NCBI GenBank assembly: GCA_041552055.1
Contig: JBFELO010000007.1
Span: forward strand, 564-64,563
Origin: Candidatus Sulfomarinibacteraceae bacterium
GTDB lineage: Bacteria > Acidobacteriota > Thermoanaerobaculia > Thermoanaerobaculales > Sulfomarinibacteraceae
Length of the DNA: 64,000 nucleotides
Direction: 5' to 3'
Part shown: positions 39,646-51,471 of the stretch, piece by piece
Numbering within the stretch: the first letter of the stretch is position 1
Layout: each line of letters opens with the position of its first letter
Made by a program: the position numbers and the translations under genes
Notes under the pieces: generated by a model
What the model saw: only the letters and a program-made list of their open reading frames with translations
Told to the model about the DNA's origin: nothing
The model's database searches: none

Positions 39646-39868
39646 AAGTCTCGATCGTGCCGCGTCTCCCGAGCGACTTCGGGGGGAGTGTCCGTCGACG
39701 TCTCAGTGCCTGATTCCCGATGCGAAACCGTGCAGGATCTCGGATACGGAAACGGAGACTGATACGGAGGCGGGGCGCGTCCCTGGAGATGAGAGAGGGA
39801 GTGCTCCAGGACGGCGAACGGTGGCGGTACAATCTTACAATGGGCCGACAGTAGAAACCGGCGGAGAG

Positions 39869-41008
39869 ATGACGGATCTCGAATCGAACATTCAAGCCTA
39901 CCGAACGATGGCCGAGGTCCTGGTCAACCTGCGGAAGATCATCGTGCGAGGCTTGCAGCGGGTCGCCGGCGAGACCTGGTACCTCGACGGTTGCCCGCCC
40001 GCCGTGTACGAGCGACTCGTCGAGCGCAAGGAGACCGAGCTCGCCATTCAGCGGCTCTCGTCGGAGTACGAGGACCTGATCAGTTTCGCGACCTTTGCGG
40101 ACCTGGCGGAAATCGTCGAGTTCAACGAAGATCTGGCGCGGCTGCTCCGCAACCTGGCCCCCTCGACCGAGCTCCTGTGCGCGCGCCTGATCGAGCTCGA
40201 GGCGCTGCGCTGCAAGCTTTCCCAGGGACGCGACTTGAGCGTCGAGGAAATCACCGTCATCACCAACTACAGCACCAATCTCGTGGCGACGCTCGCCGGC
40301 GCCCGGCGTCGGACGGCGCCGGCGCGGGAAGCGGTTGCTCCCTCGGCTGGGCCTCCGGTCTCGGAGGAAGCCGAGGCGCCCTCTGCCGAGGAGGTTCAAC
40401 CCGACGACGAGTCGGTGGAGGAGCTCAGAATTCGGGACGAATCTACCGTGGCTGTGCCGATCGTCGCGGAGGAGAACGCGCGGGAGGAGCCGGCTCCCGT
40501 AATCGAGGAAGAGCCCGGACCATCGCTCGTCGCGAAGGCAGAAGAGGACCGCCGGGTTCTCGCAGTCGAGGAGGAGGTATCGGCGGCGGAAGCGGCGACA
40601 CAAGAGCAGGAGCCCGACGAAGAGCCGGCTCCGCCGATTATGACGGCTCACGCCGAATTCGAGGCCATTGCGGACGACATCGAGAACGCACTCGCCGATG
40701 GCGAGGCGCGAGACGTGTTGCGAGTTCTTCGGCGGGAGGTGATCGCCGTCGCAGAGGCGGTCTATCGGTTGGATGATGAGATCGTGCCGCCCGGATGGCA
40801 GCGGATCCGCACGAACGGATGGTTCAACGAACGGAGCGAGGAGTTTGGACTCGAACCGCTCGCCGAGTTCCACGGTCTGGTCGAGGAGTACCAGGTCGGG
40901 CGAGCCGAAGGGCTCGACCAGGACCAGCTGCGCGGCATGCTCTCGAGCCGGAAGTTCTCTCGATTGCTGCTGACCCTGCGGGAGATGTTCCTCCGCAACG
41001 GTGTGTGA
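39869..41008 (+). CDS. Hypothetical protein: Swt1-like HEPN-like N-terminal domain, acidic linker, helical C-terminal domain
   Basis: LRKII...GETWY..GCP..V...FADLAEIV...LEALRCKLSQ; Glu/Ala/Pro-rich middle. Confidence 0.65.
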   Translation: MTDLESNIQAYRTMAEVLVNLRKIIVRGLQRVAGETWYLDGCPPAVYERLVERKETELAIQRLSSEYEDLISFATFADLAEIVEFNEDLARLLRNLAPSTELLCARLIELEALRCKLSQGRDLSVEEITVITNYSTNLVATLAGARRRTAPAREAVAPSAGPPVSEEAEAPSAEEVQPDDESVEELRIRDESTVAVPIVAEENAREEPAPVIEEEPGPSLVAKAEEDRRVLAVEEEVSAAEAATQEQEPDEEPAPPIMTAHAEFEAIADDIENALADGEARDVLRVLRREVIAVAEAVYRLDDEIVPPGWQRIRTNGWFNERSEEFGLEPLAEFHGLVEEYQVGRAEGLDQDQLRGMLSSRKFSRLLLTLREMFLRNGV

Positions 41009-41237: not shown

Positions 41238-42359
41238 TCAGCCGACGTACACCGCGCCGGGGGACATCATCTTGCCGTCCGGAAGGTACTCCAGACAGTG
41301 CGCCATCCAGCCGGTCTGGATTGCCAGGCTGAACGGGATCGGGAATGCGCTCGGTGGCAGACCGATCGGGTGGTAGACCAGACCGGTGATGCTGTCGACG
41401 TTGGCGTGCACACCCTTCGGGCCCAGCGCGGACTCGACTTCATCGCGAAGCGCGAGGTAGCTGTGCCACAGGTCTTCCCGATAGTGCGATGCGAGCAGCG
41501 CCCGAGCATGCGGTTCGAGCACGCGCACCCGCGGATCCGGACACTTGTAGACACGGTGGCCGAAACCGGGGAAGCGGTGGCCTCTCGCGACCGCCTCGCG
41601 TGCCCAAATTCGTGCGTGGTCCGGTCCGTCGAGACCCGCGAGCATCTGGAACGCCAGCTGGTTGGCGCCGCCGTGGCGCTCTCCTGACAGCGCGCCCATG
41701 CCGGCGAGGACCGCCGAGCCGAGATCCGCTCCGGTGGAGATCACCACCAGTGCCGCGAACGCCGCGGCGTGGAGGCCGTGTTCCGCCTGGACGATCAGGC
41801 TGGCATCGAACGCCCGCTCCTCTTCTGGCGATGGGCGGCTGCCCAGCACCTGGAAGAGGAAGTTGGCGGCAAAGCCGAGGCCGTGGTCGGGCGGCACCGG
41901 TTCGAGCCCCTGGAGGTGGCGGATCGCCGCCGCGGCCAGTGCGGCTGTCCAGCTGAGGATGCGCGCCGGCCGCCGCCATTGGGCATCCATCTCGTTGTTC
42001 TCCGGCTCGGGAATGTGGCAGGCGGCGACCGTGAGCATGGTCCGGTACTGTGTCATGGGGTGGGAGCGAGTCGGGACCCGGCGCAGCGCGTCGAAGGCGG
42101 CCTGTGGCGGTTGACGCCACCTGATCTGTTCCCGCCGCCATTCCTCGAGCTGGCTCGCGTCCGGCAGATCGCCGAACAGGACGAGATAGGTCACTTCCTC
42201 GAAGGTGACCCGAGCTGCAAGCTCTTCGACATCGTAGCCCCGGTATGCCAGGCGGCCACGGTTGCCGTCGATGGTGCTGATCGCCGTGTCACCCACCACG
42301 AGACTCTCGAGCCCCCTGCCGTAGGTCTGCCGGGCGTCAACCGGTGCCGAGCCGATCAC
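41238..42359 (-). CDS. Citrate synthase family protein, subunit keeping the catalytic His/His/Asp
   Basis: GLES..GDTAIS.IDG..GRL.YRGY, RHGGANQ, GFGHRVY..PDPR, ANVD; GTG overlaps the upstream TGA. Confidence 0.88.
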   Translation of the reverse strand: MIGSAPVDARQTYGRGLESLVVGDTAISTIDGNRGRLAYRGYDVEELAARVTFEEVTYLVLFGDLPDASQLEEWRREQIRWRQPPQAAFDALRRVPTRSHPMTQYRTMLTVAACHIPEPENNEMDAQWRRPARILSWTAALAAAAIRHLQGLEPVPPDHGLGFAANFLFQVLGSRPSPEEERAFDASLIVQAEHGLHAAAFAALVVISTGADLGSAVLAGMGALSGERHGGANQLAFQMLAGLDGPDHARIWAREAVARGHRFPGFGHRVYKCPDPRVRVLEPHARALLASHYREDLWHSYLALRDEVESALGPKGVHANVDSITGLVYHPIGLPPSAFPIPFSLAIQTGWMAHCLEYLPDGKMMSPGAVYVG

Positions 42360-43567
42360 GGCTGTCCTCCACGGTCGATCGAACGCGGGGCGGCTCCAAC
42401 GTACCGGCTGAGCGGGCGGTAGAGGCGGATGCCGTCCAGCCCCTCTCGAACCAGCGCCACCAGCCCGGCCATGCGGGCGATGGCGATCAGGCACGGCGCG
42501 AGTGGCGGATCGGCGCCGAGCAGGTGGAAGAGCAGTGCGCCGTAGAAGTTGACGTTGATGTGGACGCCCCTCGGAGCGAGCTCACGGGTGGCAGCTTGTT
42601 CGATCGTGCGCGCGATCTCGAACAGCTCGCCGCGGCCCTTTCGACTGGCGAGTGAAGCAGCGGTCTGACGCAGGATCACGACCCGTGGGTCCGGCATCCG
42701 GTAGTCGGGGTGACCGAAGCCGGCGATCGAGCTCCCGCTGGCGAGTTTCTCGCGGACCCACTTCTCCGCTTCGCCGGGATCGGATCGATCGAGCAGCTGG
42801 TCGAGAACGGCCTCGCCGGCGCCGCCCTGCCTCCATCCCCGGAGCGCCGACAGGCCCGCCACGACGTTGGTGTATGGATCGGCGAGGCACGACGCGACCA
42901 CCATCGACGTGAAGGTTGGCGCGTCGAGGCCGTGGGCGGCGTACAGGACCCACAGCAGGTCGAGGGTCCGGATGTCGTCCCGCTCGGGGGTGCAGCCGCT
43001 GATGGCGCACAGGAGCTCTTCGGCGAGAGAACCTTCACTCTCGCAACCACCGGCCGCCGCGGCTCCCCTTCGGTGACGCACGATCTCGCCGACCAGAGCC
43101 GCCACCTGTCCGACGATTCGAAGCTCGCGCCAGTGTCGGTCGCCGGAAATGTCGTCGTCCACCGACAGCTCGTGGCACCCGAGCGCCGAGATCCCGGCAC
43201 GCAGTGATCGGGTCGGGTGTGTCGTCGGGTCCAGGTCGCGCACCAGCGCGACGACATCCGGGGGAAGTCGCCGGCTCGACCTCAGATTGTGGCGAAATCG
43301 TTCCCAAGATTGGCTGTCCTCCTCGCTCGCCATTCCGGTGATGAGCAGGAACGCGACCCGCTCGAAATCGGGCGCCGCCGCCAGCGATGCGACCGGAACT
43401 CCGCGATAGGCGAGGCGGCCGCTCGATGGGTCGAGCCACATGACTCGGGTTCCGGTCGCGATGACGCCGGCCAGGCCTGGGCCCACGTCGGTGGTTACCG
43501 GCCAGTCGAGAGAGTCGGCCCGCCAGTCGAAGCCCGGGCTGAGGGTGGGGAAGACACGATCTGGCAC
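42356..43567 (-). CDS. Citrate synthase family protein, catalytically degenerate subunit
   Basis: GLAGV, GRLAYRG, RQGGAGE (His to Gln), GFGHPDY..PDPR, INVNFY (Asp to Asn), LYRP..RYVG; start uncertain (GTG 7 nt after TATTCT). Confidence 0.85.
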   Translation of the reverse strand: MPDRVFPTLSPGFDWRADSLDWPVTTDVGPGLAGVIATGTRVMWLDPSSGRLAYRGVPVASLAAAPDFERVAFLLITGMASEEDSQSWERFRHNLRSSRRLPPDVVALVRDLDPTTHPTRSLRAGISALGCHELSVDDDISGDRHWRELRIVGQVAALVGEIVRHRRGAAAAGGCESEGSLAEELLCAISGCTPERDDIRTLDLLWVLYAAHGLDAPTFTSMVVASCLADPYTNVVAGLSALRGWRQGGAGEAVLDQLLDRSDPGEAEKWVREKLASGSSIAGFGHPDYRMPDPRVVILRQTAASLASRKGRGELFEIARTIEQAATRELAPRGVHINVNFYGALLFHLLGADPPLAPCLIAIARMAGLVALVREGLDGIRLYRPLSRYVGAAPRSIDRGGQP

Positions 43568-43669
43568 CTGAAGGAGAATACAGCGGAATCGCGGAGCATT
43601 CCGGCAGCCGTGACAGATCATCCTTCACTTTTGCGGGCCACGCCTATCCCCGTGAGTCAGGTTGGACGT

Positions 43670-43806: not shown

Positions 43807-43911
43807 TGAGCTCTGAAAGGGAGCACGATACGCGGTAGGAGTCACGCTGTGCCCCGGAAAGACGAACGGGCGAGGCCATCCTCGCCCGTTCGAGTTCCGT
43901 ACCGGGATGGT

Positions 43912-47633: not shown

Positions 47634-48074
47634 ATGAAAGGAAAACGCGTCAGAAGTCCCGGACCAGCACCGCCGCTCGCGCTCGCCGTCCTCACGGCGG
47701 CGTTCGTTGCGCTGCTCGCGATCGCGTCGCTGCCGGCGCCAGCGGCGGACGGGCCGAGGCTGATCCTCGATCCCGACACGGTCGAGACCGGCGATTCGGT
47801 GACCGTCCACTGCATCGATTTCTGCGGAGAAGAGGAGTGCTCGACCATCAGCATCCAACTGGACGACCGTGTCGTTGTCGATGGGGTCGAGGTGCGTCGT
47901 GACGGCTACGCGCCGGTGAAGGTCGGTGCCCTCGCTCCTCCGGGGCGGCACACTGTCACCGCTGTCCAGGCGGAGGGTCACGATGGCGAGAGGGTCGAGG
48001 CCTTTGCCACGCTGACCATCGCCATCGGTGATCGCCAACCGCCCCCGGAGGAGACCCCTCCGATTCCTCGCTGA
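47634..48074 (+). CDS. Small secreted Ig-like hypothetical protein
   Basis: SD AAGGAGG; signal peptide; L.LDP..V..GDSVTV...PGRHTVTA beta-sandwich pattern. Confidence 0.7.
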   Translation: MKGKRVRSPGPAPPLALAVLTAAFVALLAIASLPAPAADGPRLILDPDTVETGDSVTVHCIDFCGEEECSTISIQLDDRVVVDGVEVRRDGYAPVKVGALAPPGRHTVTAVQAEGHDGERVEAFATLTIAIGDRQPPPEETPPIPR

Positions 48075-48102
48075 GCTTTCAGGAAAGGAAAAGGAGAAAG
48101 AC

Positions 48103-51100
48103 ATGATTTGGCTAGCAACAGGGCAGTTCGGCCGGCTCCTCCTGAAGGTTTTCACGGTCCTGGCGGCAGTGTTCCTGCTGGCCATCGAGCCGGCGACCGC
48201 GCAGGTCGAGGTCTACGACTTCTATCCCGAAACCAAGTACGGCGGGCGGTCCGTCGCGGTCAGCGTGAATCCGTCCGACGCCTCCATCGCCATCGAGGCG
48301 GCTGAGGGCGGCGGGCTCTACATGACCAACGACGGCGGGCTCAACTGGAGCAGGGTTTGGTCGTTTCCCATGTTCCGCATGGAGGACGTGAGCTACGACC
48401 CCAACGACCCGAACATCATCTTCGCCACCACGTTTTTCGACGGGAGATCGACCACACAATCCGGAATCTGGCGCAGTCTGAACGGTGGGACGAGCTGGTC
48501 TCGGACCACCGCCTCGATGACGTGCACCGCAAACCAGACCTATCGGCGCATCGGCATCGCGTCCGGCGCCGACGTGCACCAGAAGATCTTCGTGGCCAAC
48601 GAGTGTGGCGTGGCCTACAGCAACGACTCGGGCGATACCTGGACCAACACGGACCTCGTGACCGGGGGAAACCTTCACGTGTTCTGGGACGTCGCGGCTC
48701 GTCGCACGGGTCCGGACACGGTGACTGCCTACGCGTGCGGAGCCGGGGGCCTCTACCGCACGACTGTCACGGGAAGCGCCGCGCCGTCGTGGGAGCTCAT
48801 CCACGGTCTCGGGTGGTTCGATGGCAACAACCCGCCAGACCCGTCGCTCTATTACCCAGTCGATAATCTGGTCTTTCCGTGCGGTCTCGCAATTTCACCG
48901 TTTGACGCCAACGTTGTCTTCCTCGCGGCGCTCAACTGCCCTTCGTCGGGAGGTTGCGGCGAGGACGAGTACAAGCATCGACTGTTCGAATACCACGTCG
49001 ACGGATCCGGCTTCACATCGACGCGGCTGCCAGGACCGGACTCGCCGGGCAGGCCGACCTGGCTGGCCACCCGGCCGATCCCCTCGACCCAGGACTTCGA
49101 CCTGATCTGGGGCAACGGTATCGCCACCCACTGGCAGCGCTGCCGCCATGATGGCGTTCTCGCCACGCTGGACTGTGTGGTGGCACCCGACCCAGACTGC
49201 TCGAACAACGTCGACGACGACGGCGATGGACAGATCAACGAAGGGTGTCCCCCTGTCGGCAACCCCGAGAACGAAATAGACTCGCCCAGCGAATGCAAGA
49301 ACAACGCGGACGACGACGGCGACGGCGCCGTCAACGACGGCTGCGCCGTGATGGAGCGCCTGGACAGCGGGGCGCACGGCGACCCGAGCGGCATCGACTT
49401 CGATCCGGTGAGCGGTTGCCCGATCCTGGCGGCCAACGACGGGGGAATCAGCCGCAGCACGGACTGCGGCGTCACCTGGGCCGACCGCAACGACGGCCGC
49501 AGGGCATTGCAGATCTACAACACGTTCGGGACGATGCGTGGCCTCGGGCCGACCGACACGGACCTGTACTTCGGCACTCAGGACAACTCGTGGTTCGCCT
49601 CATACGACGGGGGGGGGTGGGGACTCCACGGTTGCTGCGAGGGATACGGCGGGCAGGTCGACCGACGGACGCCTCCCGGGGGAGCATCCGCGATCCGCAT
49701 GGTCTACCAGAGCGGCGCCTGGTTCGACCACTACAACTATTCCCCGCGTGGGTTCGCGAATTTTGACGGCCGGATACCTTTCCCGCCGGCCGGGTTCGTC
49801 GCTCCGGGAGGTTGGGCCAAGTGGCCGCCGACGATGTTCGGCCATCAGCGGTGGGGGCTGATCAGTCACAACCAGGGATGCCCGCCGATCTTCCGGCTCT
49901 ACATCATGCAGCCCGAATTCGGAACGCAGTGCGACAACGACACCGACGATGACTTCGACGGGGCGGTCAACGACGGCTGCCCGCGCGAGGGCTTCTTTGA
50001 GGAGTTCGGCGCCGACTGCCACGACAACGTTGACAACGACGGCGACGGCGTCGTCAACGACGGCTGCTCGCACATCTACAGCGCGGAGATCGGCTCGGAG
50101 TGCGCCAACAACGTCGACGACGACGGCGACGGAGTGGTCAACGACGGCTGTCAGGCGGTGGGCGACGCTGAGTTACTCGAAAGCGACTGCGCCAACAACG
50201 TCCTCAGCCAGTGCGTCAACGCGTCTGACGACGACGGCGATGGCGCGGTCAACGACGGCTGCCCGGAGGCTGGCGTGTGGGGACCGATGGGTCCCACCTT
50301 CGGTTATGACTGGCTGCAAGGGATGGCGGCGGCGGGCCCCGCCTCCTCGCCGACGTTTTACTTTGGTGTGGAAACCGCGAGCCGCGTCTACAAGCTGCGC
50401 AAGATCTTCGGCCCGTTCAACTCGAGTGCGACGCTGGCCGACGCGAGCGGGTCGGGAGCGGAAACCCTGGACCGAATCGAGCGCTACTGGGGGGCTCCTG
50501 GCACCTGGGAGAGCCCGCTGGTGTTCGGTGTGGACCCCTCGAATCCGAATCGACTGATCGCCGCTGACCACGGAACCAGGCAAATGAAGGCCTCCTCCGA
50601 CGGTGGGGTCACCTGGCAGGTGGACACGGAGTTGACGGATCTGGTCGTCAACTCCGGCGAGTTCCATTGGGACGGCACACACGGCAGCCAGGCCTGGAAT
50701 ATCGACTTCGACCCGGACGACGGGCAGCGGATCCTGATCGGCACGGAGCAGGCGGGGATCATCGCCACCGTCGACGACGGTGGGAAGTGGTTCAGGCTCA
50801 AGGACACCTTGAACCGTGTCCCGTTCGTCAACTCGTTCTTCTTCGACAACGACCATGACGTGATCTACGCGTCGTCATACGGCAGCGGCCTGTGGACGAT
50901 CGAAATCACCAACATCCCGCCGGTGGCGCTGTGCCAGGACGTCACCGTTCCCACCGAGCCCGGCGTGTGCTACGCCGACGCGTCCATCGACGCAGGCTCG
51001 TACGATCCTGACGGCGGGCCGGTGACGCTGGAACAGGATCCGCCCGGGCCCTATCCGCTCGGCGTGACCGACGTGACGTTGACCGTCACGGACGACTACG

Positions 51101-51471
51101 GCTACACGGACACCTGCACCGGGACCGTAACAGTCGTCGACCTGGAGCCCCCGCAGATCGACTGCGCCGCACCACCGACGATCATCCCGCCCGACGCACC
51201 GATCTCGTTCACGCCGATCGTCACCGACAACTGCGCCGTGGCCGAATCGGCGATCGAGGGCTACGACTGCTTCATGATCGCCGGGAACGGCAAGGTGATC
51301 GACAAGAAGGACTCGTGCGTCGTGGAGTTCACCGATGAAACGATCACGATCCTCGACTCTGGAGGCGTGGGCGACCACATCACCTGGACCGTGAGCGCAA
51401 CGGACACCAGCGGCAACTCGACGACGGAGGCGTGCGAGGTGCTGGTAGTGAACCCGGGCAAGAAACCTTGA
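48103..51471 (+). CDS. Large secreted BNR/VPS10-like beta-propeller protein with Cys/Asp-rich repeats and C-terminal HYR-like domains
   Basis: SD AAGGAG; Asp-boxes (TNDGGLNW, SLNGGTSW, STDCGVTW, SSDGGVTW); six C-x-N/D..DDDGDG..NDGC repeats; YPLGVTDVTLTVTD. Confidence 0.88.
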   Translation: MIWLATGQFGRLLLKVFTVLAAVFLLAIEPATAQVEVYDFYPETKYGGRSVAVSVNPSDASIAIEAAEGGGLYMTNDGGLNWSRVWSFPMFRMEDVSYDPNDPNIIFATTFFDGRSTTQSGIWRSLNGGTSWSRTTASMTCTANQTYRRIGIASGADVHQKIFVANECGVAYSNDSGDTWTNTDLVTGGNLHVFWDVAARRTGPDTVTAYACGAGGLYRTTVTGSAAPSWELIHGLGWFDGNNPPDPSLYYPVDNLVFPCGLAISPFDANVVFLAALNCPSSGGCGEDEYKHRLFEYHVDGSGFTSTRLPGPDSPGRPTWLATRPIPSTQDFDLIWGNGIATHWQRCRHDGVLATLDCVVAPDPDCSNNVDDDGDGQINEGCPPVGNPENEIDSPSECKNNADDDGDGAVNDGCAVMERLDSGAHGDPSGIDFDPVSGCPILAANDGGISRSTDCGVTWADRNDGRRALQIYNTFGTMRGLGPTDTDLYFGTQDNSWFASYDGGGWGLHGCCEGYGGQVDRRTPPGGASAIRMVYQSGAWFDHYNYSPRGFANFDGRIPFPPAGFVAPGGWAKWPPTMFGHQRWGLISHNQGCPPIFRLYIMQPEFGTQCDNDTDDDFDGAVNDGCPREGFFEEFGADCHDNVDNDGDGVVNDGCSHIYSAEIGSECANNVDDDGDGVVNDGCQAVGDAELLESDCANNVLSQCVNASDDDGDGAVNDGCPEAGVWGPMGPTFGYDWLQGMAAAGPASSPTFYFGVETASRVYKLRKIFGPFNSSATLADASGSGAETLDRIERYWGAPGTWESPLVFGVDPSNPNRLIAADHGTRQMKASSDGGVTWQVDTELTDLVVNSGEFHWDGTHGSQAWNIDFDPDDGQRILIGTEQAGIIATVDDGGKWFRLKDTLNRVPFVNSFFFDNDHDVIYASSYGSGLWTIEITNIPPVALCQDVTVPTEPGVCYADASIDAGSYDPDGGPVTLEQDPPGPYPLGVTDVTLTVTDDYGYTDTCTGTVTVVDLEPPQIDCAAPPTIIPPDAPISFTPIVTDNCAVAESAIEGYDCFMIAGNGKVIDKKDSCVVEFTDETITILDSGGVGDHITWTVSATDTSGNSTTEACEVLVVNPGKKP

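Follow-up and report, generated by a model that had tools for sequence, protein, structure and literature searches.

A window of 64,000 nucleotides from an uncultured sediment bacterium, a Candidatus Sulfomarinibacteraceae bacterium (assembly GCA_041552055.1, contig JBFELO010000007.1, positions 564 to 64,563 of the forward strand) contains two adjacent genes, here called A (P0001) and B (P0002), which encode paralogues of the citrate synthase family. Both genes are located head to tail on the minus strand, with A first and B downstream. As claimed in an earlier note made from the sequence of this DNA alone, they overlap by the four bases GTGA, and direct reading of the junction (GGAGGACAGCCGTGA) confirmed this arrangement. 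The start of gene A is uncertain, as translation may begin either at the GTG at 43567 or at an in-frame ATG at 43621, which would extend the protein by 18 amino acids.

Profile searches place both proteins in the citrate synthase superfamily. Against PF00285 (cut-off 27 bits) A reached 263 bits and B 314 bits, with matches to profile positions 1-356 of 357, and the two proteins are 32% identical to each other. Among the curated NCBIfam models, A stayed below the cut-off in all 21 models and B in all 22; the best model for both was TIGR01800, with 258 bits for A and 302 bits for B versus a cut-off of 421. Models of citryl-CoA lyases were matched weakly by both proteins, with 26-90 bits versus cut-offs of 193-409. 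Alignments to solved citrate synthases gave E-values of 1e-77 for B and 1e-57 for A, and a structural search with the predicted model of B (Foldseek) retrieved solved citrate synthases with TM-scores of 0.78-0.83 at 29-38% identity. The mean model confidence (predicted local distance difference test, pLDDT) of the monomers was 76.0 for B and 76.8 for A, with low values at both termini of each protein; such termini would fit ends that depend on a partner, without being a proof of it. A look-up in a protein atlas returned ordinary citrate synthase clusters only, and proteins of this kind are publicly annotated as 'citrate synthase' or 'citrate/2-methylcitrate synthase'. Neither A alone nor B alone, however, carries all of the residues by which a functional citrate synthase is defined.

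Complementary active-site residues in A and B

Active-site positions were mapped by alignment to the citrate synthases of Thermus thermophilus (1IOM) and Metallosphaera sedula (6ABX), and the corresponding codons were checked. As reference we use the numbering of the pig enzyme, in which we take His274, His320 and Asp375 to be the catalytic residues and Arg401 and Arg421 to be among the substrate-binding ones. The two proteins turned out to be complementary (Table 1). The catalytic triad His274/His320/Asp375 is complete within the single chain of B, whereas A retains only His286 of it; conversely, the arginine set 329/401/421 is complete in A, while B has only Arg277. By its residues, a homodimer of either A or B is thus without a complete catalytic site.

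All sequence motifs quoted in the earlier note were found again in the two proteins. Its statement that A has lost both catalytic residues applies to Gln247 and Asn340, but the third catalytic residue, His320, is kept. The retention of both C-terminal arginines in A was verified (Arg365 and Arg384, both of which occur in each of the 39 sequences aligned), and the same is true for the description of B as a protein with the full catalytic set that lacks both of these arginines, with Ile347 (the I of LAIQTGW) and Ser366 in their places. The motif HGLH in B, noted before as a deviation from the usual H-x-x-N, puts His197 at the position of pig Asn242.

Table 1. Positions of the gene pair, nearby features and active-site equivalents in the window
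Feature	Position	Strand	Description
Gene A (P0001)	42356-43567	-	non-catalytic citrate synthase paralogue, 403 aa from the GTG start
Gene B (P0002)	41238-42359	-	catalytic-looking citrate synthase paralogue, 373 aa
GTGA overlap	42356-42359	-	GTG start of B (42357-42359) and TGA stop of A (42356-42358); direct reading
GGAGG, Shine-Dalgarno-like	42366-42370	-	6 bases 5' of the GTG of B, within the end of gene A; direct reading
G+C-rich hairpin	43863-43892	-	perfect 13-bp inverted repeat, 20 bases past the stop of the upstream PA/PKD-domain gene
395-aa protein gene	39821-41008	+	convergent neighbour
1147-aa protein gene	48028-51471	+	repeat protein
Pig His238			acceptor binding; A His212, B His194
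Pig Asn242			0.94 conserved in canonical relatives; A Asp215, B His197
Pig His274	42827-42829 (codon in A)	-	catalytic; A Gln247, B His229
Pig His320			catalytic; A His286, B His268
Pig Arg329			acceptor binding; A Arg295, B Arg277
Pig Asp375	42548-42550 (codon in A)	-	catalytic base; A Asn340, B Asp322
Pig Arg401	41319-41321 (codon in B)	-	acceptor binding; A Arg365, B Ile347
Pig Arg421	42416-42418 (codon in A)	-	acts in trans across the dimer interface; A Arg384, B Ser366

Conservation, selection and origin of the pair

A search with A yielded 375 relatives at E<=1e-20, the best 120 of which were 63-97% identical. When one genome per species was scanned, 27 loci with an A orthologue were found, all of them from metagenome-assembled genomes (MAGs) labelled Thermoanaerobaculia, Thermoanaerobaculales, Sulfomarinibacteraceae, 'Holophagae' or similar; a candidate 28th locus (L031) was dropped, as its 38% partial match was not an orthologue. 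A B orthologue comes directly after A at 26 of these loci, the contig of the remaining one (L022) stops within A, and there was no A-only locus among them. Residues were tabulated for the 17 loci with both genes whole, which together with the window make 18 pairs. The other ten loci (L006, L008, L018, L020, L022, L023, L025, L028, L029 and L030), mostly from long-read MAGs, were left out on account of cuts at contig ends or frame breaks. A 19th pair (L032, 6227-8541; G271:C9), with an ATGA overlap, comes from another Acidobacteriota family and shows 61% and 64% identity; it has the same residue pattern, with Leu at A position 274 and Glu at B position 421, and could go back either to gene transfer or to a wider ancestry. 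The earlier note had suggested looking for the same pair and substitutions in relatives, and the intact pairs indeed share, in 19 of 19 cases, the reciprocal substitutions, the order of the two genes and a start/stop overlap of ATGA or GTGA.

Across the 18 pairs, A invariably has His238, Asp242, His320, Arg329, Asn375, Arg401 and Arg421, with Q, T or S at position 274, and B invariably has His238, His242, His274, His320, Arg329, Asp375 and Ile401, with S, E, D, N, L or A at position 421. A larger alignment of A (n=39) gave the same picture, with Asn375, Arg401, Arg421, His238, His320 and Arg329 in 39/39 sequences and Q (26), T (9), E (2), L (1) or S (1), and in no case His, at position 274. 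Position 287 of A, which presumably corresponds to pig Arg324, a ligand of the CoA phosphate, is occupied by P (17), R (15), H (4), S (2) or T (1). In the B alignment (n=19), His274, His320, Arg329, Asp375 and Ile401 are found in 19/19, while position 421 holds E (9), S (5), N (2), D, L or A (one each). With regard to the idea of targeted substitutions in A, Asn375 is fixed, but position 274 varies freely instead of showing a directed change from His to Gln.

The ratio of non-synonymous to synonymous substitutions (dN/dS, Nei-Gojobori) in the closest pairs was 0.14-0.28 for A and 0.10-0.18 for B, indicating purifying selection on both genes; more distant pairs were synonymously saturated and thus uninformative. 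This is in line with the previous claim that selection rather than decay accounts for the changes in A. The pair therefore combines a dead paralogue under purifying selection with an active-looking one inherited together with it (26 of 27 loci; matching subtrees), a feature known from 'prozymes'. The plain public annotation of such proteins might favour simple redundancy, with A as a functionless decaying duplicate and B as an ordinary isoenzyme. However, A is intact and 62-72% identical between genera, its alignment contains 109 invariant columns (n=39), and the substitutions of B are fixed. Together with the dN/dS values of A, these conservation data contradict such an explanation, which we consider extremely improbable.

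B also differs from its nearest relatives. Of the 141 nearest full-length family representatives (among 150 listed), 115 have the full canonical residue set, and Ile at position 401 is found only in the cluster of B itself; outside this cluster the identity to B was at most 40% among the nearest representatives listed. In 18 of 18 B sequences the acceptor pocket is remodelled by the replacements Asn242->His, Ser244->Ala and Arg401->Ile, at positions whose canonical conservation is 0.94, 0.99 and 0.99, respectively. Thr245->Ala and one more Arg->Leu exchange are likewise fixed in all 18 (canonical conservation 0.84-0.86). In addition, the C-terminal arm of B is lost, with a median of 3 residues past the YxG motif versus 13 in 140 canonical relatives. 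A retains 12 residues past this motif and has a conserved N-terminal extension, in which Trp15 and Pro23 are invariant. The question raised earlier, whether the downstream protein is just a normal citrate or 2-methylcitrate synthase, can thus be answered to the effect that B is not an ordinary one by its sequence, given the NCBIfam scores and Ile401.

A maximum-likelihood tree (IQ-TREE quick search, LG+G4) was calculated from 79 rows, namely 8 of the 18 A and 8 of the 18 B sequences, the canonical enzyme of the same genome and 62 representatives. A and B each form one clade (support 100), the inner groupings of the A subtree agree with those of the B subtree, and the stems are long (0.98 for A and 0.89 for B versus 0.13-0.31 for the tips). 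The two clades are sisters (SH-aLRT 96), a placement for which long-branch attraction is possible. When 201 genomes from the class were scanned, only the window's own family had A orthologues (62-68% identity), with 14 of its 28 other genomes positive; none was found in the 172 genomes of 19 other families, and G104, G004, G179, G135 and G175, which belong to this tally, were also without an A orthologue. A scan of the phylum (401 genomes) gave an orthologue in 3 genomes only.

Among 61 genomes of the family, PF00285 was matched at least three times in 32, twice in 5, once in 22 and not at all in 2. The third such gene of the window's genome (C28:22959-24095) encodes a protein with all canonical residues, hence a canonical citrate synthase, and the A/B pair therefore appears as an accessory to the normal enzyme. 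Another genome of the family, G228, apparently carries two separate A/B copies on contigs C53 and C24. Searches for PrpD and PrpF (PF03972 and PF04303) gave no match in the window's genome, which is rated 100% complete, and the PEP-mutase family used as a test for PrpB (PF13714) gave one weak partial match of 48 bits. These results argue against a methylcitrate cycle.

The genes upstream of A vary and encode an M28 peptidase, a penicillin amidase or, as in the window, a PA/PKD protein. In several relatives (loci L010, L012, L014 and L016), the gene immediately preceding A on the same strand codes for a large M28 peptidase that is secreted and carries an InhA-like MAM domain. The conserved downstream neighbours are convergent and comprise FxsA, a PLD-like protein and a 395-aa protein that has an acidic low-complexity middle part and no Pfam match; the latter is the conserved convergent neighbour at most related loci. 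Farther away in the window, the 1147-aa protein contains many repeats of an NNVDDDGDGxVNDGC-like motif.

The hairpin between A and the upstream gene is likely to be a terminator, and if this putative assignment is correct, A and B would form a two-gene unit of their own; the hairpin was missed by a consensus scan on account of its weak T run. A promoter scan did not find a sigma-70-like site. Contigs from four RNA libraries of three studies cover A and B, and those from three of the libraries (X15, X16 and X17; two studies) bridge the A/B junction. Since these libraries may hold DNA and cover the flanking regions as well, the contigs are no evidence for expression or co-transcription.

A possible composite active site and alternative organizations

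The reciprocal losses can be explained by a heterodimer of A and B with one composite active site, to which A supplies an arginine in trans, and with an acceptor that is probably not bound in the way oxaloacetate is. The earlier note had inferred an obligate A/B heterodimer, an interpretation that is supported in part. To the present version, which we regard as the best of the explanations, we give an even chance. The residues and their conservation, the coupling of the two genes and their joint inheritance are observed, while the physical complex, its single site and its substrate are what we infer from the residue patterns. The pocket in B would be formed by His229, His268, Arg277 and Asp322, and Arg384 of A, which corresponds to pig Arg421, would reach across the interface to complete it; in such a dimer this pocket would hold every catalytic residue as well as the arginine from A and would miss only Arg401. 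The mirror pocket in A would be without His274, Asp375 and the trans arginine, and probably its CoA binding would be lost, too. As this pocket keeps two histidines and two arginines, it appears likely to bind an anion, either for regulation or for a coupled closure of the domains. The fact that His238, His320, Arg329 and Arg401 of A are conserved in 39/39 sequences suggests that the role of A goes beyond donating an arginine and that it has probably retained the binding of an anion. The freely varying positions 274 of A and 421 of B would both face the pocket of A, and the variability at these two positions and at position 287 of A would fit one live and one dead site. The start/stop overlap and constant gene order, the purifying selection on both genes, the sister clades with their long stems and matching groupings, the asymmetric ends of the two proteins and the canonical citrate synthase encoded elsewhere in the genome also speak for this explanation.

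Structural work on other citrate synthases provides the background for these assignments. For the M. sedula enzyme, whose residue numbers were counted along our alignment and agree with the publication (PMC6386500), that study describes a salt bridge of Arg332 (equivalent to Arg401) with the carboxylate beside the carbonyl. Arg262 (Arg329) and His253 (His320) are described there to hold the carbonyl/hydroxyl group, and Arg351 of the partner subunit (Arg421, aligned with Arg384 of A) to bind the arm carboxylate of citrate. In the T. acidophilum enzyme (PMC4601594), the carbonyl and the alpha-carboxylate are contacted by Arg271 (R329) and His262 (H320), the partner subunit is embraced by the C-terminal arm and the dimer is seemingly unable to close one site alone. 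The same active-site residues are named in a preprint (10.1101/2024.11.06.622199).

Regarding the substrate, Ile401, His242 and Ala244 are fixed in B, and the acceptor is therefore probably either not oxaloacetate or held in a different manner. The change of acceptor had already been put forward in the earlier note on the basis of the missing Arg401 equivalent, and this idea gains support from the role of Arg332 in M. sedula, but it is weakened by the possibility that His197 of B replaces Arg401. Speculatively, an acceptor might keep the distal carboxylate and have a neutral group in place of the C1 carboxylate, as is the case for a 3-oxoacid. A more specific proposal would be an obligate heterodimer in which the remodelled B condenses an acyl-CoA with a non-oxaloacetate acceptor, e.g., a 3-oxoacid or a semialdehyde, while the dead A lends the trans arginine and has, in its own Arg/His pocket, a site for an effector or for closure; we put this forward tentatively, as it is somewhat more probably wrong than right.

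Alternatively, a heterodimer might still produce citrate or 2-methylcitrate from oxaloacetate, with A as a regulatory subunit, comparable to those in the heteromers of NAD-dependent isocitrate dehydrogenase, and His197 of B standing in for Arg401. Such an enzyme could make use of His238, His274, His320, Arg329 and Asp375, all of which are kept in B, and of the anion-binding residues kept in the pocket of A; moreover, the carbonyl and the alpha-carboxylate are already bound by the equivalents of Arg329 and His320 in the T. acidophilum enzyme cited above. It appears improbable, however, as Arg401, Asn242 and Ser244, highly conserved in canonical relatives, are all replaced in 18 of 18 B proteins, and as B remains below every NCBIfam cut-off. 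Furthermore, the genome already possesses a canonical citrate synthase, and the search for PrpB, PrpD and PrpF in this genome gave nothing beyond the weak partial match of the PEP-mutase family.

A different explanation would be that A and B form two separate homodimers which work together, namely a remodelled enzyme B2 and a non-catalytic, ligand-binding A2. B2 would then use an acceptor that needs neither Arg401 nor Arg421, e.g., a small 2-oxoacid held by Arg329 and His320 alone, whereas A2, with complete sites for di- or tricarboxylates, would act as a sensor, regulator or scaffold. In accordance with this, the residues His238, His320, Arg329, Arg401 and Arg421 conserved in 39/39 A sequences would rebuild a full binding site in A2, and in B, which has neither arginine, many sequences carry an acidic residue at position 421 (E in 9 and D in 1 of 19), which would fit an acceptor with no distal carboxylate. 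A role of citrate synthase independent of catalysis is also on record for Caulobacter (10.1101/799742). On the other hand, the four-base overlap in 19/19 pairs and the lack of A-only loci suggest that the two proteins are made in equal amounts, even if this is no proof of a complex, and B2 would be a dimer with neither C-terminal arm. It also speaks against separate homodimers that duplicates of a homodimeric protein are initially able to cross-dimerise. Altogether, we regard two cooperating homodimers as the main alternative, though a rather unlikely one.

Several of these points weigh against the A/B heterodimer with a composite site. The whole set for binding oxaloacetate or citrate, including Arg421, is kept in A, and a non-catalytic A2 homodimer would account for this equally well; the lack of both arginines in B could suit a B2 homodimer with a smaller acceptor, and the two homodimers side by side explain the residues nearly as well; and His197 might compensate for Arg401, in which case the acceptor could be oxaloacetate. 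When A and B were aligned, opposite conserved charges were present in two columns only, and as we take both, from where they are in the sequence, to belong to the small domain, there is no sign in the sequence of a heterodimer-specific interface. A fused A-B protein was not found among proteins of 707-2015 aa, which is weak evidence, and the conserved neighbours of the pair do not indicate any pathway.

Relation to known enzymes and significance

In fold and length, A and B resemble the short dimeric citrate synthases of T. thermophilus (1IOM/1IXE), M. sedula (6ABX), S. tokodaii (1VGP) and P. furiosus (1AJ8). In these enzymes, the trans arginine makes the active site common to both subunits. 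They are, however, homodimers with two identical complete sites, whereas A and B are each incomplete alone. The 2-methylcitrate synthase PrpC (3HWK, 3O8J) has the same fold and is represented by the model that tops the NCBIfam scores of both proteins, TIGR01800, but these scores are below its cut-off, and prpD and prpF were not found in the genome. Moreover, in PrpC it is the donor that has changed and not the oxaloacetate site, whereas in B the acceptor site is remodelled. Citryl-CoA lyase is a further member of the superfamily of A and B, and so is the citrate synthase homology module of ATP-citrate lyase. In contrast to them, A and B are full-length citrate synthase domains with scores below the cut-offs of the lyase models, and a gene for a citryl-CoA synthetase does not adjoin them. 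FrbC (phosphonomethylmalate synthase) was considered as a relative with a changed acceptor and rejected, as it is a homologue of homocitrate synthase (HMGL-like) with another fold.

The closest analogies in terms of organization come from other folds and organisms. NAD-isocitrate dehydrogenase is a heteromer of catalytic and regulatory paralogues. Likewise, in trypanosomatids, dead paralogues termed 'prozymes' form heteromers with AdoMet decarboxylase and deoxyhypusine synthase, as described in two publications (PMC5201418, PMC3663545). Common to these systems and to A/B is a dead paralogue that is selected beside an active one; both subunits contribute to the sites, and the dead one of these may have a regulatory function, though for A/B the complex is deduced from the sequences.

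In the literature searched, from which subscription journals were largely excluded, we found no description of a citrate synthase that is heteromeric or has a pseudoenzyme as a subunit. The accessible text of a study on the self-assembly of citrate synthase (PMC11615384) contains no mention of the terms heteromer, heterodimer, paralog or inactive, and the available parts of the papers found on these Acidobacteriota do not mention 'citrate synthase'.

Among the nearest representatives of B, four catalytic-looking proteins (P0152, P0166, P0246 and P0266) are without Arg421 (S, Q, N or S), and a 602-aa protein (P0254) looks dead, as it has no GxxHGGA motif and NVSY for NVD, while both arginines are kept. 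Each of these five proteins might be one half of a further heteromer, or an enzyme that uses a different acceptor. When metagenomes were scanned with P0254, a second adjoining citrate synthase gene was present in none of 80 loci, and there was hence no second independent A/B-like pair in this set; by a crude motif check, most of the proteins from these loci were canonical, and about 19 had an odd residue at position 401 or 421.

Citrate synthase is a textbook homodimer, the active sites of which are common to two identical subunits. The reciprocal and conserved losses in A and B suggest a two-protein enzyme of a kind that is undescribed for this family, and if this is true, the pair would be a clear natural case of the transition from a homodimer to an obligate heterodimer with a single site and would add a pseudoenzyme subunit to a family for which we found none described. 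The fixed loss of the arginine holding the C1 carboxylate of oxaloacetate points to a condensing reaction that may be unassigned to the citrate synthase fold so far. Should the tentative proposal of an obligate heterodimer with a non-oxaloacetate acceptor be correct, a textbook enzyme family would gain a new quaternary form as well as a new reaction. The public label 'citrate synthase' on both proteins would mislead metabolic reconstructions of Acidobacteriota that are widespread in sediments and soils.

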